49,804 nt of DNA from a virus (lineage: Duplodnaviria > Heunggongvirae > Uroviricota > Caudoviricetes): the IMG/VR virus record IMGVR_UViG_2579779034_000011, positions 1 through 49,804 of that record. One strand, 5' to 3'. The position numbers and the translations under genes were made by a program. The notes below the pieces were generated by a model. It saw nothing but the letters and a program-made list of their open reading frames with translations, did no database searches and was not told the DNA's origin. The number at the start of each line of letters is the position of its first letter. The stretch's first letter is position 1. Shown piece after piece: positions 2,800-48,538 of the stretch.

Positions 2800-3202
2800 T
2801 AATCAAAATTTAAAGGCGCATGCTTTACGAACAGCAGTCTTACGCTACTACATTGCTGATGCATTCATTTCCTTAATGGTGCGTGTTCATAATGAACCTG
2901 TTTATATTGAAGATGGCGAACGAATAGAACTCTCCCACGAAAAAGTGGTGAGTAATATTATTTACCATATTGAAATGCCGTGGGTGAATGAGTTTGGGGC
3001 TGATGCTGGTTGCATACTGGCCGCAGAGAAACTGGAAAAAATGCTTAAACCAGGCTTTATGTCAGAAAATATTCGCCTGTCAGTTTTTGGTGTCACAGAG
3101 ATGCGTGAGGTTTACCGGGATATTATTTTCGGAGCACCTGATGGCGAACTACCCGAAGGTTTTGAATTTGTGAAGCCGGAAGGTCAGGAGGTGCTGCTGT
3201 GA
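2792..3202 (+). CDS. hypothetical protein
   Basis: 136 aa; 8-bp overlap upstream, 4-bp overlap with the primase start. Confidence 0.6.
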   Translation: MNNNQNLKAHALRTAVLRYYIADAFISLMVRVHNEPVYIEDGERIELSHEKVVSNIIYHIEMPWVNEFGADAGCILAAEKLEKMLKPGFMSENIRLSVFGVTEMREVYRDIIFGAPDGELPEGFEFVKPEGQEVLL

Positions 3203-5886
3203 AAACACCGTCTGTATCCACGATTTCCGGAGCTGCAATTGGGCGCTGGCCTTATATCCTGTCAGCATTAGGTATTAAAGTACCGTCCGCAGGACATCAT
3301 GGGGCTTGCCCTGCCTGTGGTGGAAAAGATCGTTTTCGACTGGACGATAAAGCGGGGCGAGGGACGTGGTTTTGTAATCAGTGCGGTCATGGCGATGGTC
3401 TTGATCTGGTTCGTCTGGTGACAGGAAGAAAGATAAAAGAAGTCGCCGGGATGGTATCTGAGGCGCTTGCATTACCAGAAATACAGGAGAAGCCCGCATT
3501 GCCAGCCAGGAAAAAGGCCGCAGGAAAAGAAGCGGGCGCGGAGCGATATACCAGACTCAGACAGCAGTCCTGCAATGGTGAGCCGGTCTATCTGACAAAT
3601 AAGAGCTTACACGGGTATTCACTTCCCTTGCTGTCACAGCCTTTGAATCTGGCCGGAATAACATTTTCCACCGGTTCATTACTGCTGCCTTTGACGGATA
3701 TTTCCGGGAATATTACTGGTGGCCAGCTTATCAATCCTGACGGGGATAAAAGTCTGCTGCCCGGTAGCCAGCTGTCTGGCGCATTCATTGCCCTGACCGA
3801 TATACCCGCTGAAACACCTGAACAGGTGATTATCACTGAGGGTTTTGCCACGGCGCTTACCGTCAGTCTGCTGACTGAAGGATGGATCGTGGCGGCTGTC
3901 GCTGCCACCAATTTACTGAAGGTGACGGAGCAGATCCGAAAACGCTGGCCGGAAACCCGGATCATTCTGGCCGGAGATAATGATCTGGCTGACGGCAAAG
4001 AAAACACCGGGCGTATTCAGGCAGAGAAAGCCGCCAAAGCGGTGGATGGCTGGGTAACGCTCCCTCCGGTACGCCATAAGGCTGACTGGGATGATTATCG
4101 GCAGGAAGTGGGGAAAGAACGGGCGAGAGATGCCTTTCGTGAAGAAATGACGCTGCATGGCAAAGGGCAGACCCGTTTACCAGAAGGGTTCCGGCTGACA
4201 AAAGAATATTTGTGGTACGACAAGCTGGTTAATAAGTCTGATGGTGATACAGAGATACGTAATATCAAAATTTGCAGTCCGTTGCGGGTGACGGCAATCA
4301 CCAGTGATGCTGATGGAAGTAATTACGGGCGTTTGCTGGAATGGGAAGATACCAACGGAAACAGCCGTAAATGGGCAATGCCGATGGAGATGCTGGGCGG
4401 TAGCGGGGAAGAACTGCGCCGCGTTCTGCTGGTTAACGGGCTTTCTTACATCAACATTAACGGCATGGCCAGAGCATTCCTGATGGAATATATCTCGCTG
4501 TGTAAACCGGACAGAAAAGTAACCTGTGTGAATAAAACTGGCTGGCACGGCGGGGTTTACGTTCTCCAGGATGAAGTGATAGGGCGCGAAGCCCAGTCAG
4601 TCATCTTACAAACATCGAGTGTGCAGGGGCGTGATTTTCGTGTCAGCGGCACATCAGAGGGCTGGCGTGAAAATATAGGCCGTTATTGCATAAAGAATGC
4701 CCGTCTTGCCTTTGCGGTGAGTCTGGCATTTGCTGCCCCCCTTCTGAAACTGGTTGGTATCGGCGGTGGAGGTTATCACCTCAAAGGGGAATCCACAGAC
4801 GGTAAAACCACGACGATGAAAGTGGCTGCATCAGTATGTGGTGGAACAGATTTCTGGCATACGTGGCGGGCGACGGGGAATGCCTTAGAAGGAACGGCGA
4901 GCCGCCGCAATGATGCCACGCTGATGCTGGATGAAATCCGGGAGGTTGACGGCAGGGAGGCGGGAAATATCGCTTATATGCTGGCTAACGGGCAGGGCAA
5001 AGCCAGAGCCAGAACAGATGGTTCGGTAAGGGAAACCAACCGCTGGAATCTGTTGTTTCTGTCTACCGGGGAACTGTCACTGGTAGAGCATGCGGCAAGC
5101 GCCGGGGAACGTACGTATGCCGGGGTTGAGGTCAGAATGATCCAGATCCCAAGCGATTCGGGCAAGTATGGCGTGTTTGAAGAACTTCATGGCTTCAGTA
5201 GCGGGAAAACCCTGGCTGAGCATCTTGAGCAGCACGTAGCGCATTATCATGGTGCACCATTCCGCGACTGGCTGTATTGCCTGACCGCTGATCTGCCGGA
5301 ACTGACCAGTCAGGCGAAAGCCTTATTGAAAGAGTATACCCGAAGGCTGACGCCGGAAAATGCCGGGAATCAGGTTGGCCGGGCTGTTACCCGTTTTGCT
5401 CTGGTTGCGATGGCCGGGGAGCTGGCCACAAAAGCGGGCATCACAGGATGGCCGGAGGGAGAGGCCTTTCGTGCCGCTCAAAGCTGTCTGGCTGCATGGA
5501 TGGCTGACCGGGGCCATACAGCTAATCAGGAAGATAAAGCGGCACTTGAACAGGTTCGGGACTTCATGACGCGTAATCAGTTCAGTCGGTTTGCTGACTG
5601 GAATGACGACAGGAACCGGCCTGTTTCAATGATGGGATTCAGAAAAGTCGATAAAGGAGACAACGTGACAGAGCCGGTTGTGACGTTCTACGTTCTCCCG
5701 TCAGGCTGGAAGGAGATCTGTAAGGGATTTGACTCGCGTAAGGTGGCCAGGTTGTGTGTGGACGCGGGCTGGCTGAAACCCGGTGAAGATGGCCGGACGC
5801 AAAACAGCATTCGCCTGCCAGAAATAGGGCTTAAACGTGTGTACCAGTTCAATACACAGGTACTGGGAAGCGCTGAACCTGAGTGA
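3199..5886 (+). CDS. P4 alpha-like primase-helicase (Zn ribbon + TOPRIM primase + P-loop NTPase)
   Basis: 895 aa; CPACGG...CNQCGH zinc ribbon; EGFATA primase motif; DND acidic motif; Walker A GESTDGKTT; Walker B LMLDEI. Confidence 0.85.
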   Translation: MKTPSVSTISGAAIGRWPYILSALGIKVPSAGHHGACPACGGKDRFRLDDKAGRGTWFCNQCGHGDGLDLVRLVTGRKIKEVAGMVSEALALPEIQEKPALPARKKAAGKEAGAERYTRLRQQSCNGEPVYLTNKSLHGYSLPLLSQPLNLAGITFSTGSLLLPLTDISGNITGGQLINPDGDKSLLPGSQLSGAFIALTDIPAETPEQVIITEGFATALTVSLLTEGWIVAAVAATNLLKVTEQIRKRWPETRIILAGDNDLADGKENTGRIQAEKAAKAVDGWVTLPPVRHKADWDDYRQEVGKERARDAFREEMTLHGKGQTRLPEGFRLTKEYLWYDKLVNKSDGDTEIRNIKICSPLRVTAITSDADGSNYGRLLEWEDTNGNSRKWAMPMEMLGGSGEELRRVLLVNGLSYININGMARAFLMEYISLCKPDRKVTCVNKTGWHGGVYVLQDEVIGREAQSVILQTSSVQGRDFRVSGTSEGWRENIGRYCIKNARLAFAVSLAFAAPLLKLVGIGGGGYHLKGESTDGKTTTMKVAASVCGGTDFWHTWRATGNALEGTASRRNDATLMLDEIREVDGREAGNIAYMLANGQGKARARTDGSVRETNRWNLLFLSTGELSLVEHAASAGERTYAGVEVRMIQIPSDSGKYGVFEELHGFSSGKTLAEHLEQHVAHYHGAPFRDWLYCLTADLPELTSQAKALLKEYTRRLTPENAGNQVGRAVTRFALVAMAGELATKAGITGWPEGEAFRAAQSCLAAWMADRGHTANQEDKAALEQVRDFMTRNQFSRFADWNDDRNRPVSMMGFRKVDKGDNVTEPVVTFYVLPSGWKEICKGFDSRKVARLCVDAGWLKPGEDGRTQNSIRLPEIGLKRVYQFNTQVLGSAEPE

Positions 5887-5911
5887 TTATCGCGTGAGTC
5901 TTATTTTTATG

Positions 5912-6105
5912 AGGTAACACTGGTAACAGAGGTAACACCCGTTACTGATGCGGTTCTTCAGTGTTACCAGTCAAAAATACTGACTGGTAACAGAGGTAAC
6001 AAAAAATGGTGTGTTACCACGCGTTACCTCTTGATTTTGCTAACTGGTAACAGATTAAATCCTTTTAAATCAATAGCGTTACACGTGTTACCAGTGTTAC
6101 ACGTT
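5912..6105. repeat. iteron array, probable origin of replication of the P4-like element
   Basis: about 12 copies of heptamer GGTAACA/TGTTACC in both orientations, including an 18-bp direct repeat CTGGTAACAGAGGTAACA twice; immediately downstream of the primase-helicase gene. Confidence 0.6.
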
Positions 6106-6168
6106 CAGAACAAGAGGTAGGGATCCAAATCCCTTCTTCTGGCGGGCAACAGTATAGGGCACAGAACG

Positions 6169-6441
6169 ATGAAGATGATGAGAATGTACTGCCCCACATG
6201 TCAGGCAGTAGCACGGATAGGTAAAACAAACAGGAAACACCCACAACTGTACGATGTGTACTGCTATTGCTCTAATGTGGAGTGCGGTCACTCGTTTGTG
6301 ATGAATGTTGCTTTCTCCCATTCCGTTAGTCCAAGCGCGCTGAACGGGCAGGGAAGGGTTAAAGAGCTGATTGATGCAATTCCACCCGAGGAACGGGAAA
6401 AGGCTTTAAAGTTGCTGCTGGCTGCGCAAAAGAATGGGTAA
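6169..6441 (+). CDS. Ogr/Delta-family zinc-finger late-gene activator (start may be an internal Met at 6178 or 6187)
   Basis: C-x2-C-x22-C-x4-C spacing (CPTC ... CSNVEC) matching P2 Ogr CPLC ... CQNVNC. Confidence 0.65.
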   Translation: MKMMRMYCPTCQAVARIGKTNRKHPQLYDVYCYCSNVECGHSFVMNVAFSHSVSPSALNGQGRVKELIDAIPPEEREKALKLLLAAQKNG

Positions 6442-7120
6442 AGTATGCGTCGGGAATGGCCGATCTGTTCCCGGAACCTGAACACAGGATTTCAGTTTAT
6501 ACGGTCATAAAATTATTATTTTTCAACTGGTTATCTTCTTCATGTTTCACAAACCTTCATAAAATCACACACCTAAAATTAATTATCCATTTAATATCAT
6601 AGAGTTGCGTATTCAGGCCATAGATTCGACGGACAGTAAAACTGAAAAAAAATGAATTTCTTTTCATTCTTTTCAGTTCCTGTATCGCAGTACATCTCGA
6701 GGACTGGCACGGACTGGCGGTATCGTTTGTAAAAAATCCAGGCTGAAAATTTTTAGTGATATGAAAACCGCAGGCGGGTGCGGTGTAGTGCCGTTTTGGT
6801 CTGTCGAGCGTATATTTTCCTTTTTCACGATTGCTGCATATCAAAACGAATGTGCAGATATCAGGCCGTGTCAAACCGTGAATCGTGGAGCCTAAATGCC
6901 CAAACTACGTTTGTAGACCTAGCTAGGGGAAGGTTTCCACATATACTGCTACCTATCTTCCAGTCGCTGGTGAGGATCAAGGTAAGCTAACTGGTGAACA
7001 AGAAAAGTACTTTCGTATCTTGCGTACTCGTTTTTTTTGATTAGTATGTACAGGTAGTAACTGGATGGTGAGAATTCGTCATAACTTATCAAATTGCATG
7101 ATGTTTATAGAGTATGAGTA

Positions 7121-15660: not shown

Positions 15661-16320
15661 TTAACTAAATGTCTCTTCAGGCCACTGGCTGGCGATAACT
15701 TTCCCTACTACGGAACAGCTATCATTGCATGGAATCATTGGATATTGCGGGTTTAGTGGCTGTAGGAACACCTGACCGCTATCCCTGATCAGTTTCTTGA
15801 AGGTAAACTCGTCACCACCAAGTCTGGCTATGCAGAAATCACCTGGCTCAACAGCCTGCTCAGGGTCAACGAGAATTAACATCCCGTCAGGAAAGCTTGG
15901 CTTGGATCCTGTTGGCGCGGTCATGGAATTACCTTCAACTTCAAGCCAAAACGCACAATCACTGGCTTTTTTGGTTGTGCTGACCCATCTCTCCGCATCA
16001 CCTTTGGTAAAGGTTCTAAGCTCAGGCGAGAACATCCCGGCCTGAACATGAGAAAAAACAGGGTACTCATATTGTTTTTTAACGGGGGCAGATGAGTATT
16101 CGCCAACAGGTGAAAATGTACCGTCGTGGTTGAATGAGACATTATCAATACCAAGGTATTTAAACACCACACCAATCTCGTCAAGAGATGGATGACGAGA
16201 TCCGCGCAACCAGTGACCAATTCCACCCTGCGTCATACCAAGCTCTTCAGCTAACTTCTCTTGAGTTATGCCGAGCTCTTTCATTCTGGATCTAGCCAGT
16301 TCATACCATTTCATTTTCAT
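15661..16320 (-). CDS. cI: CI repressor (HTH plus S24 LexA-like autopeptidase domain)
   Basis: C-terminal about 130 aa near-identical to lambda cI ([21 protein letters not shown] ... EGNSM ... [13 protein letters not shown]); N-terminal DNA-binding domain differs; start chosen at MKMKWYE to leave about 110 bp of operator. Confidence 0.9.
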
Positions 16321-16431
16321 ACCCTTATTATTACGCTCTGTACTAAAACCATCCATGCACAAGATGTATTTTTTGTTTGCATTCTAAAAGTACATATCGT
16401 ATTATTGTTTCATGGTTACTATGGAGGGCAT
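16321..16431. promoter_or_regulatory. divergent PRM/PR operator region
   Basis: intergenic between divergent cI and cro; contains AGTAC/GTACT half-site-like repeats. Confidence 0.5.
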
Positions 16432-36203: not shown

Positions 36204-37622
36204 ATGCCGATTCAGCAACTTCCGCTTATGAAAGGTGTCGGCAAAGACTTTCGAAACGCCGACTATATCGACTATCTGCCAGTGAATATGTTGGCAACCC
36301 CCAAAGAAATCCTGAACAGCAGCGGATATCTTCGCTCATTCCCGGGCATTGCCAAACGCTCTGATGTGAACGGTGTATCGCGCGGCGTCGAGTACAACAT
36401 GGCGCAGAATGCTGTCTATCGTGTGTGTGGCGGCAAGCTGTACAAAGGCGAAAGTGAAGTCGGTGATGTTGCCGGAAGTGGTCGTGTATCAATGGCTCAT
36501 GGTCGGACATCACAGGCGGTGGGCGTTAATGGTCAACTGGTAGAGTATCGTTATGATGGCACGGTTAAAACCGTCTCAAACTGGCCTACAGACAGCGGAT
36601 TCACTCAGTATGAGTTAGGTTCTGTTCGTGACATTACGCGCTTACGCGGGCGTTATGCGTGGTCAAAAGACGGCACTGATTCATGGTTTATCACTGACCT
36701 TGAAGACGAATCGCATCCTGACCGCTACAGTGCACAATATCGTGCCGAGTCTCAGCCGGACGGCATCATCGGCATCGGAACATGGCGAGACTTCATCGTC
36801 TGCTTTGGTTCATCGACGATTGAATATTTCTCCCTGACTGGCGCAACCACCGTTGGTGCCGCTTTGTATGTTGCACAACCATCGCTGATGGTGCAGAAAG
36901 GCATTGCCGGGACTTACTGCAAAACGCCGTTTGCTGATTCCTATGCGTTCATCAGCAACCCGGCAACGGGTGCGCCGTCTGTGTACATCATCGGCTCCGG
37001 TCAGGTGTCACCAATCGCCAGCGCGAGCATTGAGAAAATCCTCCGCTCCTACACTGCTGATGAACTGGCTGATGGCGTGATGGAATCGTTGCGATTTGAT
37101 GCGCATGAGTTGCTGATTATCCACCTTCCGCGCCATGTTCTCGTGTACGACGCATCTTCAAGCGCCAATGGTCCGCAATGGTGTGTGTTGAAAACTGGCT
37201 TGTATGACGATGTGTACCGCGCTATCGACTTCATTTACGAAGGAAATCAGATAACGTGCGGCGATAAGCTGGAGTCCGTGACCGGGAAATTGCAATTCGA
37301 CATCAGCAGTCAGTACGACAAGCAACAGGAACATATTTTATATTCTCCTTTAATAAAGGCAGATAACGCTTTAATAAATGACCTTGAATTAGAAACATCG
37401 GGCGGCGTGTGTGATAGAATAGATAAAATATTTATATCAGCCACTACAGATGGAATTAGTTACGGTCGTGAGCAAATGGTCGTATTACAAAAACCATTTG
37501 TATATGACAATCGCGTTTTATGGCGAAAAGTTGGTCGAGTTAGACGCCTCATTGGATTTAAATTCAGAGTTATTGCAAAAGGTCCTGTTACATTATCAGG
37601 CCTTTCTATTCGTGTAACATAA
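36204..37622 (+). CDS. 10: tail hub/head completion protein (P22 gp10-like)
   Basis: 472 aa, same length and position as P22 gp10. Confidence 0.85.
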   Translation: MPIQQLPLMKGVGKDFRNADYIDYLPVNMLATPKEILNSSGYLRSFPGIAKRSDVNGVSRGVEYNMAQNAVYRVCGGKLYKGESEVGDVAGSGRVSMAHGRTSQAVGVNGQLVEYRYDGTVKTVSNWPTDSGFTQYELGSVRDITRLRGRYAWSKDGTDSWFITDLEDESHPDRYSAQYRAESQPDGIIGIGTWRDFIVCFGSSTIEYFSLTGATTVGAALYVAQPSLMVQKGIAGTYCKTPFADSYAFISNPATGAPSVYIIGSGQVSPIASASIEKILRSYTADELADGVMESLRFDAHELLIIHLPRHVLVYDASSSANGPQWCVLKTGLYDDVYRAIDFIYEGNQITCGDKLESVTGKLQFDISSQYDKQQEHILYSPLIKADNALINDLELETSGGVCDRIDKIFISATTDGISYGREQMVVLQKPFVYDNRVLWRKVGRVRRLIGFKFRVIAKGPVTLSGLSIRVT

Positions 37623-40043: not shown

Positions 40044-41423
40044 ATGGCTACGTGGCAACAGGGTATTAATTCTGGTGGTTTTCTGGCTGGCATCGGTACG
40101 CAAAACGAGAATGCACCAAAGGCAAGCGACATTAACGCAACGCTTGGTCTGATCCGCGAAAACAATGAGTTGGCTCGCTCAGGTGCAAATAACGTTGGTC
40201 TGACCGCGTTACGTGGTCTGGCTGGAGTTGCTGATATTTACAATCAGGAACAGCAACAGAAAGCGATTAATGCGTTCAATAAGGTTCACGCTGATGCATG
40301 GGCTTCTGGTGATCCATCGGGACTATTTAAGTTTGCCCAGGAAAATCCAGCGTTTGTTGCACAGGCACAACAGGCGTTTTCCGGTCTTAATGATCAGCAA
40401 CGTAACGATATGGGCGATTTAGCCATGAGGGCTAACGTCGCTCTTTCTCAGGGACCGGAAGCCTACAGTAAATTCATTACTGACAACAAGGACAGGTTAA
40501 ATCGCGTGGGTGCGAATGCTGACTGGATGATTCAGACAGGTATCCAGAATCCAGAGCAGCTATCACACATGCTGACTACTATGTCTCTCGGTGCACTTGG
40601 GCCAGAAAAGGCGTTTGCTGTTCAGGACAAGATAGCTGGTCGTGAGATTGACCGAGGCAGACTGGCAGAGACAATCCGCAGCAATCAGGCTGGCGAGGCG
40701 CTAACAGCGCGTGGTCAGAATATCACGATGCGCGGTCAGGATTTATCGATGCAGAGAGCATCAATGAAAGGGGCGGTTGGGAATAATGAGCGTACAGTTC
40801 AGTTAGCAGATGGCAGAACTGTAACGGTAGGCGGGAAGCTTCACGGCGCTGGGGCTAATGCGTTCTACGAAGGTATCGACAACGAGGGGAATATGGTTCG
40901 CGTTCCTGCTGGCTCTATTGCCGCTCCGGCTACATCGGCAGCAAGCGCGCAGAATTACGCAATGAAGAAAGATCTTGATGCAATTTCTGGTGCATCAATT
41001 GACGATCTTGGCTTCATGACTGGCATTACAGGCTCTTCAGGTTCTCCTGCTCTTGGTGCAGATATTCGTAGCCGTGCATCTGGTGGTGATCAGAGGAAAC
41101 TATACAACGCTGCACAGCGAATCCAAGGAAAGATGCAGAATCAGGGCATTGCAGCAGCCAGAGACATGGGGGCATCCGGTATCAACACCGTTGCAGAAGC
41201 AAAGATGTATTTTCAAGGTATGCCACAGGTTGATTTCTCAAGCCCTGAAGCACTGCAACAATCAATGCGCGACATTCAGCAATATACCGACAATTACAAC
41301 CAGCAATATAACGTTAATGTCGGTAATGGAGGGAAGAAATCATCAATGCAACAGCCGCCTACTCAGCAATCAGCAGGAGGTAGCTACACGTCAAAATCAG
41401 GCATTCAATTTACGGTGGAATGA
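40044..41423 (+). CDS. 20: ejection protein (P22 gp20-like)
   Basis: 459 aa; conserved position. Confidence 0.75.
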
Positions 41424-43252
41424 TGAAAGTAACTGCAAACGGTAAGACATTTACCTTCCCTGATGGTACGAGCACGGAAGATATTGGCACCGCCATTGAT
41501 GAGTATTTTGCTGGTCAGGCTGTTCAGCAACAAACAGTTAATCAGGCCAATAATGAACCAGCACGTGAAGAACCATCATTGATGCAACAAGCTGGCGATT
41601 GGCTCACAGGTGGTCAAAGTGCAGGGCAAATTGCAGAGCAGGCTGGTCGTGGTCTGGTAAACATACCATTTGACGTATTGCAGGGTGGCGCAAGTCTGAT
41701 TAATGCAATCAGCCAGGGGCTTGGTGGCCCCAAGGTTTTGGACGATGTCTATCGTCCAGTAGATCGACCAACAGACCCTTATGCGCAAGCTGGAGAAACA
41801 ATTGGCGGGTATTTAGTTCCAGGAGTTGGAACGGCAGGAAGCATGGCTATTGGATCACTGGCAGAGGCCGCAAATCAGAAAGGCGATTTCGCACAAAATG
41901 CAGCTAAAAATGCCGGAGTTAACCTTGCCGCTCAGGGGGTTCTTTCCGCAGCAGCAAAGGGAATAGGGCGTGGAATTACTGCTGTTCGTGGCGAAATATC
42001 ACCAGCAGATCAGCAATTGCTCAAGCGTGCCGCTGCGGCAGATGTACCAGTTATGACATCGGATGTAGTTCCTCCAAAAACAAAACTTGGCAATCAACTG
42101 CAGGGTTACTCAGAAGGAGTCATAGCTGGGACTGGACCAATGAGAGCCGCACAGCAGGATGCTAGAACCAAGCTTGTTAATCGCTTCACCGAAAAATACG
42201 GCGACTACGATCCATCTGTAGTCGTTGATAGTCTAAAGTCAGGCGTTGCAAGGGAAAAATCGTTAGCCAAGTCAAAACTAAACAACCTGTCAGGAAGAAT
42301 GGTTGGAAAGCCAGTTGATACAAGTGGCGCCATAAGAGCTATCGACGGAGCAGTAAACGAACTTGGGAAACTTAAAGGTGTTTCTGACACCCAGACCATT
42401 TCTGCGCTTAATGATTATAAGAATGCCATTCAGGAGATAACAAATGGAGATGATGCCTTTGAGTTACTTGATAAGCTGAGAACTCAGTTCCGCATTGACG
42501 TAAAAGGCGATCGTACAGTTCTGCCATCAATGTCGCAAACAATGGTCGACAGGGTCTACAACTCGCTAACCAATAGCCTTAGTAAATCTATAGCGAAAGG
42601 ACTTAGCCCAAAAGATGCTTCAGCATGGAGAGCGGGAAAAGCTGATTATGCAAAAATGGCAACACATGCAACTCAAACGCGCCTTAAAAACGTTCTAAAC
42701 AAAGGAGATTTAACTCCCGAGGCTGTAAATACCATTGTGTATGGACAATATGGGTCAGATATAGCTCGATTGTACGGGAAACTCGATCAAAAAGGTAAAG
42801 ACATGCTAAGGGCGGCATATATCAGCAAAATAGCTGACAAGGTAGGTGACAGCCCTCAGAAAATGATGACCGAGCTTGGCAAGCTGCAAAAACAAGCAAA
42901 TGGTCAGGTGTTTAAAACTGTATTTGGTGGGAAGAACGGAAAAGAGATAGAGGGGATGTTATCTATTCTCGATGCTACCAAAAGAGCATCTGAGGCTAAT
43001 GTTGTGACGAAGACTGGCATGACACTCGCGCCTTTGGTAAGGGTTATTGGTAACCTAAAAACCGGAGGCGCGCTATTGGCAGGGGAAACAGGGATTGGCC
43101 TTATGTCGAGGGTTTATGAAAGCCCTATGGCTAGGAATGCGCTCTTACGTCTGGCAAACACTAAAGCTGGAACGCCAGCTTATGAAAGAGCGTTAAGCAA
43201 AGCTGCAAATGCAATCAGACCGCTGCTTGCCACTGAGGCAACACAGCAGTGA
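41420..43252 (+). CDS. 16: ejection protein (P22 gp16-like)
   Basis: 610 aa; conserved position; ATGA overlap with the gp20 stop. Confidence 0.75.
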
Positions 43253-43269
43253 CTAAATGCCATGGATGG

Positions 43270-43458
43270 TTATTTCCCTAGCACATGAAACAATGTTTGC
43301 TTTAATTCCACCCATACAATTATGACCACTATAGACAGACAAAAGAAACTGAATGCATTGGCATCACGATCGAAACCTTCTCCGGCACTAAATCCGTAAA
43401 AGGTCATAAAAAATATAAAAATTGCGCACTTTGCAACGTTTACAAATTTTTTCTTCAC
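43270..43458 (-). CDS. hypothetical small membrane protein
   Basis: 62 aa with two hydrophobic segments; AT-rich; at the edge of the immI-like region. Confidence 0.4.
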   Translation of the reverse strand: MKKKFVNVAKCAIFIFFMTFYGFSAGEGFDRDANAFSFFCLSIVVIIVWVELKQTLFHVLGK

Positions 43459-43518
43459 ACCAACCTCCTTAGTTTTGCGCAGGATACCAGATGATAATGT
43501 GTCGCTTCCTAAAGGATA

Positions 43519-44160
43519 TCAAAGCAACGGGATTTCAAGGTAAACTGCGGTTGCCAAAATACTAACATCTTCATTTCTAACAAGAATATTAGGATACATT
43601 GGGTTTAGGGATACTAGGTTTGTCTCTATTTCACCAATGTAAACCTGCTTGAAGCTCAATATTTGCTCTTTATCCAATGATGCTATTACATAATCTTTGC
43701 TTTTAGCTTTTACTAGAGGACTGAACGTGACAACCGATCCTCTGGGAAAACTAATACCTGAACTTGTAGTCATAGCTTCACCTTCAATAGTCAATGCAAA
43801 TGCAGAGTCACCAACATTGTATATTGCCGGATGAAATCTAGACGATGAATGTTCACCTGTGTTTAGGTAATGCATAACTTCATCTAGTTTGAGGATTGGT
43901 ATTTGCTTTACCAGAACGTCAGGCATGACGTTTTTTGTTCCCGGACCCTGACCTTCACCTAGAGCTAACCACTCAGCCGTAGTACCTAATGCGTTGGCTA
44001 ATGCCTGCAATACCCGAAGCCGTGGTTTAGCCTCACCACCCTCGTATGCAGCTATTTGACGTTGAACAACACCAGCTAATTTTGACAACTGCGCCTGCGT
44101 CATACCCCTGGACTGTCTTGCCAGAGATACTCTTGATGGGAATTGATCGTCAAAATTCAT
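43519..44160 (-). CDS. CI/LexA-like repressor with HTH and degenerate S24 domain
   Basis: 213 aa; the S24 fold aligns to the lambda cI C-terminal domain, but catalytic Ser is Ala (EGEAM vs EGNSM) and the Lys position is Thr/Ala (ILATAVY vs VVGKVIA). Confidence 0.7.
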   Translation of the reverse strand: MNFDDQFPSRVSLARQSRGMTQAQLSKLAGVVQRQIAAYEGGEAKPRLRVLQALANALGTTAEWLALGEGQGPGTKNVMPDVLVKQIPILKLDEVMHYLNTGEHSSSRFHPAIYNVGDSAFALTIEGEAMTTSSGISFPRGSVVTFSPLVKAKSKDYVIASLDKEQILSFKQVYIGEIETNLVSLNPMYPNILVRNEDVSILATAVYLEIPLL

Positions 44161-44259
44161 TAGTTCACCATAAAAAATTCATTGACTCATACTGAGTGTG
44201 AGTGAATAATCAAACTACAAAAAGTGAGATTATGAGTTTTTTAAAAACAGGAGTGCATA

Positions 44260-44433
44260 ATGACTGAAAAGATATCTTCCATCAAGCCGCGTCAGGTTCG
44301 TTTTACAGAAAAGGTTGATTCACATATCCGCGAATCAGCAAAAAGATGCCATAGGTCAATTCAGGCAGAGATAGCTTATCGAATGGAGTTATTGATGAAA
44401 CTTGAGGCAAAGGGCGATGTTGTCATCCAATAA
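44260..44433 (+). CDS. arc: Arc-like ribbon-helix-helix repressor
   Basis: 57 aa found by manual translation; resembles P22 Arc as I recall it; divergent from the repressor. Confidence 0.5.
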   Translation: MTEKISSIKPRQVRFTEKVDSHIRESAKRCHRSIQAEIAYRMELLMKLEAKGDVVIQ

Positions 44434-44506
44434 AAATAGTGAAGCCCGGCAGTGCGCGAACACAAACCGGGCCTCTATGTCAGTAACCGTATGCAAGGAA
44501 ACTAAC

Positions 44507-45133
44507 ATGAATATTGTAGCAAAATCAGAATACAACTTCCACGGAGTTGAGTTGGTGCCCACCCGTGATATGCATGGTGTTTGGTTTACATCATCTAATA
44601 TTGCATCTGCACTTAAATACGCAAATAGTCGTGCAGTAACAATGATTTATAACAAGTATAGCGATGAGTTTAGCGCTGGAATGACTCAGGTACTCGAAGT
44701 GAGTACCTCAGGAAATTATCGCAAAAAAGTGCGAGTTTTCTCACTACGCGGTGCCCACCTAATCGCGATGTTTGCTCGCACTCCGGTAGCCAAAGAGTTC
44801 CGCCGCTGGGTGCTGGATATTTTGGATCGGCAGGCAGAATGCTCACCGATTGCAAAACAGTTTACTGACGAAGAACTGGTTAATCTCTGCTACTTACAAT
44901 TGTGGATGGAGAAGAGTCAACAAATGTGCAAACACATCTACCCAGGAATGAAGCAAATTGGCTCTGAGCTTTCAGGAAGAATTTACGATATTGCATATGA
45001 GACTCGCTATATGTCAGAAGAAACCAAGAAATCACTTCTTCGTGAAATGAAGAATCTTGATACCAACAATTTTGTCGTAAAGAACGCTCAGCCAATGCTG
45101 ACAAAACTGCGCGGCGAGGAATGGATTCATTGA
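44507..45133 (+). CDS. ant: antirepressor-like protein (Bro-N-type N-terminal domain)
   Basis: 208 aa from MNIVAKSEY; AGGA RBS. Confidence 0.6.
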   Translation: MNIVAKSEYNFHGVELVPTRDMHGVWFTSSNIASALKYANSRAVTMIYNKYSDEFSAGMTQVLEVSTSGNYRKKVRVFSLRGAHLIAMFARTPVAKEFRRWVLDILDRQAECSPIAKQFTDEELVNLCYLQLWMEKSQQMCKHIYPGMKQIGSELSGRIYDIAYETRYMSEETKKSLLREMKNLDTNNFVVKNAQPMLTKLRGEEWIH

Positions 45134-45221
45134 TTGGTGCGCCGGACGGCGCAAAAAGAAAACCGCCAGTGTGCTGCTGGCGGCCTATGTCACACCCTTA
45201 CTACCACATAAGGAATGCCTA

Positions 45222-45947
45222 ATGACTTTGAAGAATGTAGCAAACATCGGATCCGTTGTCACGGATAAAACCATTGACAGCCAAAGTCTTCTGATGATGG
45301 TTAATGAAGCTCGCAAGTTATGTGGAGAGCCATCAGTACGTAACAACAAATTCATCGAGAAAATTGAGGATGAATTGGAGGGCGAGACCTACACAAAAAG
45401 TGTAGGTCGGAAAAACGGGGCTGACATTGATGTTATCTCCATGACTATCAAGCAGGCGCTTCGTGTTGCTGCTCGCGAATCTAAAGCAGTTCGCCGAACA
45501 CTTGTAGACAAACTTGAAAGTATGCAGGAAGCACACATTAAAAGCGGTAAATCAGCGAGTGGACTTGTTGAGTATCGTCAAGCGCGAACACTGAAAATGA
45601 CGGTTGAAGCTGTTACCAATCTGTTCGATCTGATGCCAAATCTTGCGCCGGAGGCAAAGCAGACAGCGGCAGCAAGTATAATCAACCCGCTTGTTGGTTT
45701 TAATGCAATACCTCTTCCGGCAATAGAAGAGCATTACTACTCAGCAGGGGAGGTTGCAGAGCAGCTTGGAGTAACGGCCAACAAGATTGGTCGCATTGCT
45801 AACGCAAACAACCTCAAAACTGAGCAGTACGGGAAGTTCTTCCTGGATAAATCGGCGCATTCCAGCAAACAGGTAGAGGCGTTCCGCTACAATTCTGAAG
45901 GCGTTAAAGCACTACAACACCTGCTACATGGCTCAAATGTGGCGTAA
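45222..45947 (+). CDS. second antirepressor-like protein
   Basis: 241 aa from MTLKNVAN; AAGGA RBS. Confidence 0.5.
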   Translation: MTLKNVANIGSVVTDKTIDSQSLLMMVNEARKLCGEPSVRNNKFIEKIEDELEGETYTKSVGRKNGADIDVISMTIKQALRVAARESKAVRRTLVDKLESMQEAHIKSGKSASGLVEYRQARTLKMTVEAVTNLFDLMPNLAPEAKQTAAASIINPLVGFNAIPLPAIEEHYYSAGEVAEQLGVTANKIGRIANANNLKTEQYGKFFLDKSAHSSKQVEAFRYNSEGVKALQHLLHGSNVA

Positions 45948-45973
45948 CATTTTATAATGAAAACTAAACCCGC

Positions 45974-46231
45974 TTAATCGCGGGTTTTTTCTTTCCTTAG
46001 AATTTCAGCCGCAACTTCTTTTACTCGTTCCGAGATTAATGAGGCCAGTCTCTCTTCTTCATCACGATACCCGCTTACAGGTGATGGTTTGGAGAGAGAT
46101 TCTTCCATCGTAGCCACAATTTCGGAATTGATAGACCTGTTATTCATTTTTGCACGCTGCTTAATCTTAGCGTGCAACTCGTGCGTAAGCCTCAAGTGGA
46201 ACTGCGCCTCATCGTATTTGCTGTACATCAT
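45974..46231 (-). CDS. mnt: Mnt-like ribbon-helix-helix repressor
   Basis: RSINSEIVATMEESLSKPSPVSGYRDEEERLA matches P22 Mnt (RSMNSELLQIVQDALSKPSPVTGYRNDAERLA). Confidence 0.7.
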   Translation of the reverse strand: MMYSKYDEAQFHLRLTHELHAKIKQRAKMNNRSINSEIVATMEESLSKPSPVSGYRDEEERLASLISERVKEVAAEILRKEKTRD

Positions 46232-46363
46232 CAATGCCTCACCAAATGGGTGGAATGGCATCGTAAAACCTACTGTACAAATCAACAATCGTACCGTTTC
46301 GGTATGTAACAAACACTATCCGTAGCCATGCTGCGGCGATTCCTTGTATCTGGAGCAAATTAA

Positions 46364-48538
46364 ATGACAGACATTACAGCCAATGTTGTAGTGAGCATGC
46401 CTTCGCAACTCTTTACTATGGCCCGCTCTTTTAAAGCCGTAGCTAATGGCAAAATTTATATCGGTAAAATTGACACTGACCCAGTAAATCCAGAAAACCA
46501 GATTCAGGTTTATGTGGAGAACGAAGACGGCTCTCACGTTCCTGTTTCTCAACCAATCATCATTAACGCTGCTGGTTACCCGGTATATAACGGACAGATT
46601 GCCAAGTTCGTAACTGTGCAAGGCCATTCTATGGCTGTTTATGATGCATATGGGGCGCAGCAGTTCAATTTTCCTAATGTGTTGAAGTACGACCCGGATC
46701 AGTTTAAATTACTTATTGGCGGTACAGATGGTAGTAAATATATCGGTTTCGGCGCTTCAACGGTTTACGATGCAATCAGGAAAACACCTCAATACTATGG
46801 AGCTAAAGCAGATGGATTGACATCAGATTCTGATGCCATTAATGCCGCAGCATTAGCTGCTTTTAATAATGGTGGCGGGGAAATATTTTACCCTCCAGGT
46901 GTTTATTTAATAGATTCTCCTATCATTCTTTATACAGGCGTTCATCATAAAGGCTCTGGAAAGAGAGCAACATTTCTGTATGTTAAAAAAGGTAGTAATA
47001 CAGATGTATTTAAAACACATGGCTTTGGCGTTGTGGAAAATCTGTCTGATGCGCCATATGGATTTAGCATAAAAGATATGACCATTGATGGTAATTATCT
47101 TGACTTGCAAAGAGATACAAACTCATGGAGAACTTGCGACACTGTTAACAATGATTATGGAACTGCCATTAAAATATTCGGCAGCATGTACCACATTGAC
47201 GTTGAGATTAATAATGTTGCAGAACATGCTCTCTATTCAGAGGGGTATGGATCATTTCATGATAATCAGGAACACGCCTCTGAAGTGAGGATAACGGGAA
47301 GAATTTCAGGGAGAGAGGGGGTTGTGTTCAGGGGGCCAGGTGATATTAACCTAGATTATATTGTTTTTGGCCTGTGTGGACTTCCTCCTTACAGCGCAAG
47401 ATTAACAGCAACAAGCCAACAAAGCCTTCTTTATCCAGGAGAACCATGTCATGGAATTGTTCTTGATAATCAGTCTCCTTATACAGGACATGTCGATATA
47501 AATTACATCCATGTATATGCTGTGTATTATGGCTATGGATTTAAGACGCTGGGTGTTAACCGATTCAATGCGAGGCACGTGTGTGTTGATAATAGTTTAG
47601 GTGGTTACTGGTTTACCAACGGGGCACATGGTGTTGTTGCCATCGCAGAAGCCAGGGCGTGCGGAAGAATGCCAGATAACTACACTGGCGATTCAATTTC
47701 TCCTCTCCGCGACATGCTTCTGGATAACGGTACAATCTGGACACTTAACATCAATATAAAAGCACAAAGATATTCACCTTCAATTGATGATGATGGGTAT
47801 CAGATAGCTATATCAGGCAACAACAATGTAGTTACAATAAACCAAATCGGTCAGTTGCAGAGTGACAATGCCCCTATTAAAGCCTCGCTTCTTTCTGTTA
47901 CTGGTGACAATAACAATGTTACTTTTACATCCAAGAGGATAAAAGGAAATTTATGTTACTTATCCGGCGGTGGTAATAATATAAGAGGTTCGTGTGATAA
48001 TTTGTTTTCGGGTTCTGCTCTTATTCGCGATGCAGTAAATTCAACAACAATTTGTTTTGCGAACAGCGTAGATATAACTGCGAAGGTGCTTTCTTCTGAT
48101 TGCACTGGATTTAACAGCATTGGCACATGTGCATCAGAGAATATAAGATTAATCACTTCAGGCGCAAATGGTTATAATAGGTTTTTAGGTGATAGAATGG
48201 CAGCCCTTAACAGGACGTGTACGTGGACGATTATGGCAACAGTTGGAAACTCAATAAATGGGAAATCAACTGACGATTATATTGAGTGGAATATGCCAAA
48301 CCCAACAGGTAGCGAACCTAACGAGGTTGATATTGAGCATAATTTTCTGTATGCCCCAACACCAAACCAGATTGCTGTGTTGGGGTTTAGACAACCTGCT
48401 GGTTCTGCAGAAGGTGCAACTTTAAGTCCAATAGAAATTATCGGAACTCCAAGTGAGTCTTCTTTCAGAATTAGATACCATTGGTCAGGCCCTTTATCTT
48501 CTGGCTCTGCTCCAATTGTAATGTTCAGGATTAGATAG
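46364..48538 (+). CDS. 9: tailspike: P22-type N-terminal head-binding domain plus a different beta-helix receptor-binding domain
   Basis: first about 115 aa match P22 gp9; the remainder is AT-rich and unlike P22 gp9. Confidence 0.85.

Follow-up and report, generated by a model that had tools for sequence, protein, structure and literature searches.

We analyzed a viral DNA stretch of 49,804 nucleotides (nt; IMG/VR record IMGVR_UViG_2579779034_000011; hereafter, the window), which matches the Escherichia coli chromosome NZ_OZ040950.1 at 100% and contains a P22-like prophage (Lederbergvirus). Between its gp16-like DNA-ejection gene (41420-43252) and its tailspike gene (46364-48538) lies an immI-type segment that encodes a 213-amino-acid (aa) cI-like repressor, here called REP (43519-44160, minus strand). 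Judged by gene order and homology, this locus is the P22 immI circuit with its maintenance repressor exchanged and is, therefore, a variant of a known circuit and no new kind of system. The geometry of the antirepressor promoter (Pant), the arc ribosome-binding site, the sar antisense RNA, and the 5′ end of ant are all shared with P22, and REP takes precisely the place of mnt, so that the cassette appears to correspond to P22 immI except for the maintenance repressor. REP, a control region of ~99 bp, an Arc-like ribbon-helix-helix (RHH) gene, a sar RNA, and one or two antirepressors make up what is, on comparison of many loci, a conserved portable cassette, and this cassette is fairly widespread in Enterobacterales prophages. 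We consider it reasonably probable that the unit is an “ant moron,” a portable immI cassette in which REP would fill the role of Mnt while being insensitive to RecA.

REP lacks the S24 nucleophile and the cleavage site

In REP, an N-terminal helix-turn-helix (HTH) domain (Pfam HTH_3, 9e-13) is joined by a linker lacking Ala-Gly to an S24 fold at the C terminus (Peptidase_S24, PF00717, 1.3e-12, above the Pfam cutoff). A preliminary description of the locus had proposed a 213-aa HTH-S24 repressor that aligns to the C-terminal domain of lambda cI, and on this point Pfam, HMMER, and MAFFT agree. Both the HMMER alignment against Protein Data Bank (PDB) chains and the MAFFT alignment place Ala129 of REP (EGEAM, codon GCT) at the nucleophile position, which is Ser149 in lambda (EGNSM). 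By contrast, the claim that the Lys position is not Lys did not survive: in every alignment made, the general base of lambda, Lys192 (TFKKL; K156 in LexA), corresponds to K171 of REP (SFKQV). In the HMMER alignment, K171 falls in the column where PDB entries 2hnf and 8gmu read Ala; these have Ala at the first Lys of FKKL, which we took to be Lys192 from the K192A label of 2hnf. Alignment of the S24 domain with LexA, cI, and UmuD thus upheld the loss of Ser and overturned the loss of Lys. The MAFFT references (lambda cI, P22 C2, LexA, and UmuD) were cross-checked against the PDB alignment only.

The scissile position has changed as well. Where lambda reads VQAG/M and P22 reads VSAG/Q, REP reads LDEVM, and no AG or CG dipeptide was found around the cleavage position. 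The AlphaFold model of REP (mean pLDDT, the per-residue confidence score, 84.9) has the lambda-repressor architecture, with a helix predicted at residues 92-101 in place of the cleavage loop. The best Foldseek matches of this model were the lambda repressor (3bdn) and, for the C-terminal domain, 1f39 (TM score 0.84, root-mean-square deviation 2.1 Å). Because REP has neither the nucleophilic Ser nor an Ala-Gly bond, canonical RecA-stimulated self-cleavage is very unlikely, as the preliminary description had also concluded. The LexA S119A and lambda cI S149A proteins are known to be non-cleavable.

Catalytic residues have been lost repeatedly in the REP family

Across loci and cluster representatives, the Ser/Lys positions read S/K in 54 cases, A/K in 34 (28 of which are the window's own allele), A/R in 12, S/R in 6, S/M in 2, and G/V and G/R in 1 each. 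Ala-Gly is essentially absent family-wide, the aligned residues reading VQAR, VQSR, VQAS, VQAA, GPFA, DEVM, and one “MAG.” Within the window's own clade, Ala occurs at 92% (P0002), 76% (P0004), and 72% (P0005/L004) identity and is present across a clade of 71-100% identity found in different phage types. In a rough neighbor-joining tree, Ser appears to have been lost independently four times or more and Lys several times. When 1.84 billion cluster representatives were searched, the tier closest to REP (E<=1e-30) was almost wholly without Ala-Gly, and canonical proteins with AG, Ser, and Lys were found only among more distant relatives, from ~E=1e-17. This confinement of the canonical apparatus to distant relatives suggests that its loss is derived and family-wide. 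With Ala-Gly gone nearly throughout the family and several lineages lacking Ser and/or Lys, the loss of catalysis can no longer be seen as peculiar to this copy. Degenerate S24 domains are in fact frequent among REP relatives, so a Ser-less cI-like protein is not rare in itself.

The Ala-bearing domain is nevertheless maintained. Between the window and L004, which both carry Ala, the C-terminal domain has 54.7/71 synonymous differences (pS 0.77, which is saturated) and 49.3/235 non-synonymous differences (pN 0.21). The Ala-bearing S24 domain is under strong purifying selection and appears functional, and we rejected a pseudogene interpretation of REP on this evidence. As a separate observation, the best-scoring matches included proteins of 640-1,927 aa with 7-11 tandem REP-HTH-like stretches (P0023, P0024, P0025, P0050, P0055, and P0056), which is an uncommon architecture.

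The control region resembles that of P22 immI

REP and the 57-aa RHH gene (RHH57) diverge from a control region of 99 bp (44161-44259), which was analyzed by promoter scan, repeat search, and comparison with P22. It contains a rightward promoter, Pant, with TTGACT (44182-44187), a 17-nt spacer, and AATAAT (44205-44210), which matches the consensus at 10/12 positions and points at RHH57. The distance between the REP ATG and the TTGAC of the −35 element is 21 nt in the window, compared with 22 nt between the mnt ATG and the TTGACA of Pant in P22 (BK000583). Of the 52 distinct control regions compared for operator inference, 27 were non-redundant, and in 21 of these 27, TTGAC stood 20-22 nt from the REP ATG. 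Intergenic length was ~97-101 bp in most loci and 89 or 114 bp in some. A weak leftward promoter candidate for REP, TTGATT-16-TATGAG, runs from 44214 to 44187, at the position of Pmnt in P22.

Three candidate operators were found: the palindrome ACTCA-TAC-TGAGT (ACTCATACTGAGT, 44185-44197), which overlaps Pant; a set of TGAGT repeats (44193-44203); and GTGAGATTATGAGT (44224-44237). The motifs ACTCAT and ATGAGT/TGAGT recurred across control regions, as did the position of TTGAC. The recognition helix of REP (VVQRQIAAYEGGEAKPR) is nearly invariant family-wide, and the sequence of the −35/−10 spacer varies freely. No LexA box (CTGT-N8-ACAG with <=1 mismatch) was found in 44161-44259.

A second exact copy of ACTCATACTGAGT at 36603-36615 (minus strand), inside gene 10 (36204-37622), was considered as another operator and set aside. 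It is probably a coincidence, because P22 and HK620 gene 10 keep 12/13 of these bases within conserved coding sequence, from which the window differs by one synonymous change. Such an exact recurrence of a 13-mer in the window has, on a back-of-envelope calculation, a probability of ~0.002. In a comparison of L031-L041, L078, and L079 with positions 44161-44433 of the window, RHH57 was 81-91% identical, whereas the REP homologue was only ~46% identical. This pairing of a conserved RHH57 with a diverged REP suggests that a recombination boundary crosses the control region.

The divergent operon has an Arc-like gene and two antirepressor-like genes, with a sar-family RNA antisense to it

RHH57 (44260-44433, plus strand) is the first gene of the antirepressor operon and encodes a 57-aa RHH protein with a full-length match to phrog_10182 and weak Pfam matches to ParD_like (8e-4) and Arc (0.011). 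When a profile of 18 homologues was searched against the PDB, all eight matches with E<0.1 were RHH proteins, with marginal E-values (AmrZ 1.8e-3, CopG 2.7e-3, pArc 3.9e-3, and Arc 0.017). BLASTP found no similarity between RHH57 and P22 Arc. Many cassettes have an arc ribosome-binding site in common, GAGGTGAATA, 5′ of the 57-aa gene, and the P22 arc ribosome-binding site is GAGGTGAATATG. RHH57 is, going by its place in the operon, the positional counterpart of P22 Arc and is probably its functional counterpart.

Between the RHH57 stop codon and the ANT1 ATG, we identified a sar-family antisense RNA of ~76 nt (44431-44506, minus strand) that was absent from the preliminary description, using a covariance model, folding, and comparison with P22 sar. 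Its sequence complements the ribosome-binding site of ANT1, and its promoter, an extended −10 of the form TGC TACAAT (44513-44521, minus strand), lies within the first ANT1 codons. The predicted fold comprises two hairpins and a U-run (minimum free energy −33.3 kcal/mol, z=−6.1), and P22 sar has a like architecture. In a pairwise alignment with P22 sar and its promoter (P22 segment 94 nt), 61 of 104 columns were invariant, and these include the extended −10, ATTCAT (the reverse of ant ATG-AAT), and the bases of both hairpins. A covariance model built from P22 and 22 elements of other loci, with the window left out, matched the window at 44431-44506(−) with 55.9 bits (E=3.3e-10). Applied to 48 other representative loci, it gave 42 matches, with one locus matched twice, and so marked the equivalent place in most of them. 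In hairpin 2, 99% of cells pair, with compensatory changes in 6/9 pairs, and register-shifted controls collapse; the alignment was fitted to the model, so these figures are biased towards structure. Five diverse sar copies have a common two-hairpin shape, with differing hairpin-1 stems. In L049, a second, weaker match to the sar model (3692-3768, 36.7 bits) lies ~1 kb from the main one and may be a duplicated antisense element before a second antirepressor gene.

The 208-aa product of ANT1 (44507-45133, plus strand) has an N-terminal Bro-N domain (1.9e-10) and a C-terminal P22_AR_C domain (2.7e-14) in Pfam. It matches phrog_245, “anti-repressor Ant,” at 2.9e-54 and is 29% identical to the C-terminal domain of P22 Ant (BLASTP, E=1e-9). 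ANT2 (45222-45947, plus strand) encodes a 241-aa putative antirepressor; no Pfam domain was found in it, but it matches phrog_1726 (4.2e-101), a family annotated as anti-repressor, and homologues of it lie downstream of Ant in many loci. Between the two genes, a minus-strand terminator-like hairpin with a T-run (45160-45186; 10 pairs, 6 of them GC) could be the end of another antisense transcript or a bidirectional element.

The prophage has a separate main repressor, cI (15661-16362, minus strand), which was aligned with lambda cI in MAFFT and has NCBIfam lexA and UmuD domain matches. Its C-terminal domain is near-identical to that of lambda cI, with VQAG, GNSM, and FKKL all intact, and by these residues, it is a canonical, cleavable repressor. 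This cI is presumed to be the target of the antirepressor, and P22 Ant is stated to act on lambda cI in a passage of PMC3121763 that cites Susskind and Botstein 1975.

The cassette occurs in different phage types and host genera

We compiled 87 loci from homologue searches, encoding contigs, viral contigs, and species genomes, together with the isolated phage JEP4 (L001). In 82 of them, a 57-aa homologue lies divergently upstream of the REP homologue, and most have ANT1 and/or ANT2 homologues downstream. The carriers differ in their tail modules: P22-like phages have the cassette in the gp16/tailspike slot, lambda-like siphoviruses (L002 and L005) have it between the tape-measure and tail M/L genes, and L004 has a third tail type. 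Loci from species genomes included ones from Yersinia, Klebsiella, Tatumella, Providencia, Xenorhabdus, and Morganella, besides the copies in Escherichia and Salmonella.

Within E. coli, the REP gene and control region were present in 28 of 5,426 complete genomes, and full-length REP open reading frames (ORFs) are conserved in these 28 genomes and in ~28 viral contigs. One of the genomes is E. coli HS (NC_009800, L089), whose repressor gene and control region are 98.7% identical to those of the window at the nucleotide level. At this locus (5204-7005), an IS3-family insertion truncates the ANT2 homologue and leaves the other parts (REP, the 57-aa gene, sar, and ANT1) intact. The corresponding locus of JEP4 (MT740315) is 97.8% identical to that of the window.

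Comparison with known systems

The roles of Mnt, Arc, sar, and Ant in P22 immI are summarized in PMC2629481 and annotated in BK000583. Like P22 immI, the locus occupies the slot between gene 16 and gene 9, has a strong Pant with TTGAC ~21 nt from the start codon of a divergent maintenance repressor, begins its ant operon with an RHH gene, places a sar-family RNA over the ant ribosome-binding site with a promoter in the first ant codons, and encodes an antirepressor with a P22_AR_C domain. However, the maintenance repressor divergent from Pant is the RHH protein Mnt in P22 and the HTH-S24 protein REP here. The Arc counterpart of the cassette is too diverged for BLASTP, ANT1 has Bro-N where P22 Ant has P22_AR_N, and the locus has a second antirepressor-like gene. 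Furthermore, the Mnt homologue of this prophage is at the far end of the segment and convergent with the operon, sieA is missing from the locus, and the cassette is not confined to P22-like phages. An S24 domain is absent from P22 Mnt, which is not known to be cleaved in the SOS response, so independence from SOS is the expected state of an immI repressor. A second, SOS-independent immunity circuit in addition to a cleavable main cI had been proposed earlier, and it holds in part: the absence of Ser, Ala-Gly, and a LexA box agrees with SOS independence, and the separate cleavable cI is present, but the circuit is not of an additional kind.

REP shares two domains, the C-terminal fold (TM 0.84), and the conserved Lys with lambda cI, P22 C2, LexA, and UmuD (MEROPS S24). 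Unlike them, it has Ala for Ser, no Ala-Gly or Cys-Gly, and a helix predicted at the loop, and unlike lambda cI and P22 C2, it is not the main repressor of its prophage. The change is identical to the engineered Ser-to-Ala substitution at the equivalent position of LexA S119A and lambda cI S149A (PDB 1jhh and related entries, which were among the Foldseek matches). By contrast with those mutants, it is natural, conserved across a clade (71-100% identity), and accompanied by loss of the cleavage site.

The antirepressor modules of Gifsy-1/-2/-3, N15, and 186 (PMC3121763) similarly have ant located away from the main immunity region and acting in trans on the main repressor. There, however, the antirepressors are repressed by LexA and target non-cleavable main repressors (PMC3121763), whereas the present cassette has no LexA box, a dedicated phage-encoded repressor predicted to be non-cleavable, and a cleavable main cI.

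The “HS-1” ant moron mapped in the E. coli HS prophage (Villafane et al. 2008, PMC2629481) is a cassette of identical type. The authors remarked that antirepressor genes were present despite an “apparent lack of arc genes,” which to them suggested another mode of control (PMC2629481), and their account did not include the 57-aa RHH gene, the sar RNA, or the state of the repressor's S24 domain. Contrary to that remark, sar and a gene that is Arc-like at the profile level are present, and the real difference would be the repressor. Our literature search, with incomplete coverage, found nothing on the REP protein or its cassette apart from the map of “HS-1” published in 2008.

A proposed mechanism and its alternatives

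In the reading we favor, REP would dimerize through its S24 fold and bind one or more operators overlapping Pant, holding the antirepressor operon off in the lysogen as Mnt does in P22. It would likewise repress incoming phages with matching operators, conferring immI-type immunity. With no nucleophilic Ser, no Ala-Gly, and no LexA box, this repression is predicted not to be relieved by RecA or the SOS response. In lytic growth, antirepressor production would be switched off again by the Arc-like protein and the sar RNA. The antirepressor, if expressed, would inactivate the main cI, which is lambda-like and cleavable. The Mnt homologue by the tailspike gene would be a leftover or second-specificity immI repressor of the P22-like backbone.

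Several observations weigh against this reading. The REP promoter candidate matches the consensus weakly, and no single motif or palindrome was conserved across the family's control regions (52 distinct, 27 non-redundant). The Arc assignment of RHH57 is at the profile level only, with marginal E-values. Rfam RF00262 (gathering threshold 43 bits) did not report the window's sar copy even at E<=10, although it scored P22 at 97.8 bits and the equivalent position of the sister loci L002 and L053 at 77.7 and 64.2 bits, above gathering; this suggests that the window copy is a diverged relative outside the curated model. Within the S24 domain, Lys171 is retained; Ser and Lys, but not Ala-Gly, persist in about half of the family; and in the 81% identical relative P0003/L002, one GCT/TCT change accounts for Ser. 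Some family members may, therefore, still cleave non-canonically.

REP itself could be SOS-responsive in such a way, being cleaved in trans by the site of the main cI, LexA, or UmuD or cleaved at a site other than Ala-Gly. DNA damage would then induce the antirepressor, making the cassette a relay from SOS to Ant comparable to the LexA-controlled antirepressors of Gifsy, N15, and 186. Retention of Lys171 and the position of the Ser/Lys dyad as the commonest family state (S/K 54) fit this view, as do the many members that keep “VQA” with R, S, A, or I for Gly, one relative with “MAG,” and another with “QAG”; moreover, SOS-controlled antirepressors are common (PMC3121763). Still, we regard such a relay as unlikely given that the nucleophile and the scissile dipeptide are both gone and a helix is predicted at the cleavage loop. 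Whole clades with an impaired dyad (A/R, G/V, and S/M) also keep the cassette, which indicates that catalysis is dispensable for its function. The Gly at P1′ in LexA is, in addition, highly intolerant to substitution, which counts against cleavage at the altered sites. We give somewhat more, though still low, credence to two related ideas, in which the dead S24 domain serves as a docking surface for the antirepressor, creating a bistable toggle, or lineages flip between SOS-coupled and SOS-uncoupled states. In the latter case, lineages would alternate repeatedly between the coupled (Ser/Lys) and uncoupled (Ala/Arg) conditions, and P0003/L002 appears to represent an Ala-to-Ser reversion.

The remaining explanations doubt that REP serves the antirepressor operon, or that it works at all. 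REP might regulate the adjacent 62-aa membrane protein gene or another lysogenic-conversion or exclusion function and stand beside the antirepressor operon incidentally. The two genes are co-oriented and 60 bp apart, and in P22, mnt is co-transcribed with orf59a (BK000583). However, this explanation looks improbable when related loci have varying genes or none in the slot downstream of REP, 82/87 loci have the divergent 57-aa/sar/Ant partner at a nearly fixed spacing of ~99 bp, and no defense-system model (PADLOC) was matched. The explanation we find hardest to credit is that the immI region is degrading and the Ser-to-Ala change is a sign that its repressor has decayed and lost function. Ant morons do turn over rapidly, and degraded genes are often found in them (PMC2629481), and the ANT2 gene of E. 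coli HS is disrupted by IS3. Yet REP ORFs are full length in ~28 viral contigs and 28 E. coli genomes, the locus is also found in the isolated phage JEP4, and the Ala-bearing domain is under strong purifying selection and has a confidently predicted fold.

Implications

If the favored reading is correct, the maintenance repressor of a textbook second immunity region can be replaced by an unrelated DNA-binding fold with the rest preserved. The exchanged unit moves as a cassette between prophages of P22-like, lambda-like, and other types, in hosts that include Escherichia, Salmonella, Yersinia, Klebsiella, Providencia, and Morganella. REP would also be a clean natural case in which a peptidase fold is kept for a non-catalytic role, its catalytic residues being lost repeatedly under purifying selection. 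Because antirepressors can cross-induce co-resident prophages, ant operons uncoupled from SOS would matter for predicting induction in polylysogens. Should the docking idea hold instead, the cassette would be a self-contained, portable antirepressor switch that any temperate phage could acquire. Flipping between states, if real, would tune whether DNA damage in one prophage sets off Ant-mediated cross-induction of its co-residents.

These results also caution against naming every HTH-S24 protein “LexA family,” “repressor C2,” or SOS-cleavable. In RefSeq, a copy of REP from E. coli is called a “LexA family transcriptional regulator,” and the JEP4 record (2818-3387) labels its repressor “repressor protein C2,” with a start 24 codons late that cuts helix 1 of the HTH. 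Both labels would wrongly imply SOS cleavage.

Neighboring genes and flanks

The ORFs named in the preliminary description are all present between the gp16-like gene and the tailspike gene, with REP divergent from the Arc-like and two antirepressor-like genes and a Mnt-like gene convergent, as it had described. Its placement of the segment at the position of P22 sieA/mnt/arc/ant, i.e., between homologues of genes 16 and 9, is borne out by these flanks. The left-flank product is 96% identical to a JEP4 protein annotated as a P22-gp16-type DNA transfer protein, and PGAP names its match “P22-gp16 family phage DNA ejection protein.” The right flank has a Head_binding domain (E=6.7e-66).

The Mnt homologue (45974-46231, minus strand) is an 85-aa protein of the Arc/Mnt RHH family (Pfam Arc, 3.2e-15) whose gene converges on the ant operon and diverges from the tailspike gene. 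A bidirectional intrinsic terminator, detected by a terminator scan of both strands (45966-45987), ends both the ant operon and the gene of this Mnt homologue. It shares 45% identity with P22 Mnt (E=2e-23) and 45-64% with the Mnt proteins of L, ST64T, epsilon34, CUS-3, and SE1. It accompanies P22-like backbones and is missing from the cassettes of L002, L004, and L005, which are borne by siphoviruses; by this distribution, it is a gene of the P22-like backbone and lies outside the cassette. The moron of the L/ST64T type consists of mnt and a short ORF (PMC8022706), and the orphan Mnt homologue could be what is left of such a moron or could supply a second immI specificity. The 132-bp gap between the mnt-like and tailspike genes contains a perfect palindrome, TACCG-TTT-CGGTA (TACCGTTTCGGTA, 46292-46304), a candidate operator for the Mnt homologue. 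Conservation of TACCGTTTCGGTA was rejected as support for this role: it is present only in near-identical loci, with Mnt >=98% identical, and is, therefore, uninformative.

On the other side of REP, the 62-aa small membrane protein with two hydrophobic segments (43270-43458, minus strand) has a GTG start after an AAGGAGG ribosome-binding site. It matches phrog_21338, which has no assigned function, over its full length (E=4e-45). It had no match in Pfam, PADLOC, or NCBIfam and no BLASTP similarity to P22 orf59a. Among the proteins of the locus, PADLOC defense-system models gave only generic HTH matches for REP, and NCBIfam gave no specific family. The 62-aa gene was found in a minority of P22-like loci only, and E. 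coli HS carries an unrelated 212-aa gene in its slot. It does lie alongside REP, as noted earlier, but it is better seen as a variable neighbor in a “moron” slot than as a member of the unit. In the JEP4 record, the two antirepressor genes carry the names “Rha” and “KilA,” each of which is plausible, but the two are swapped.

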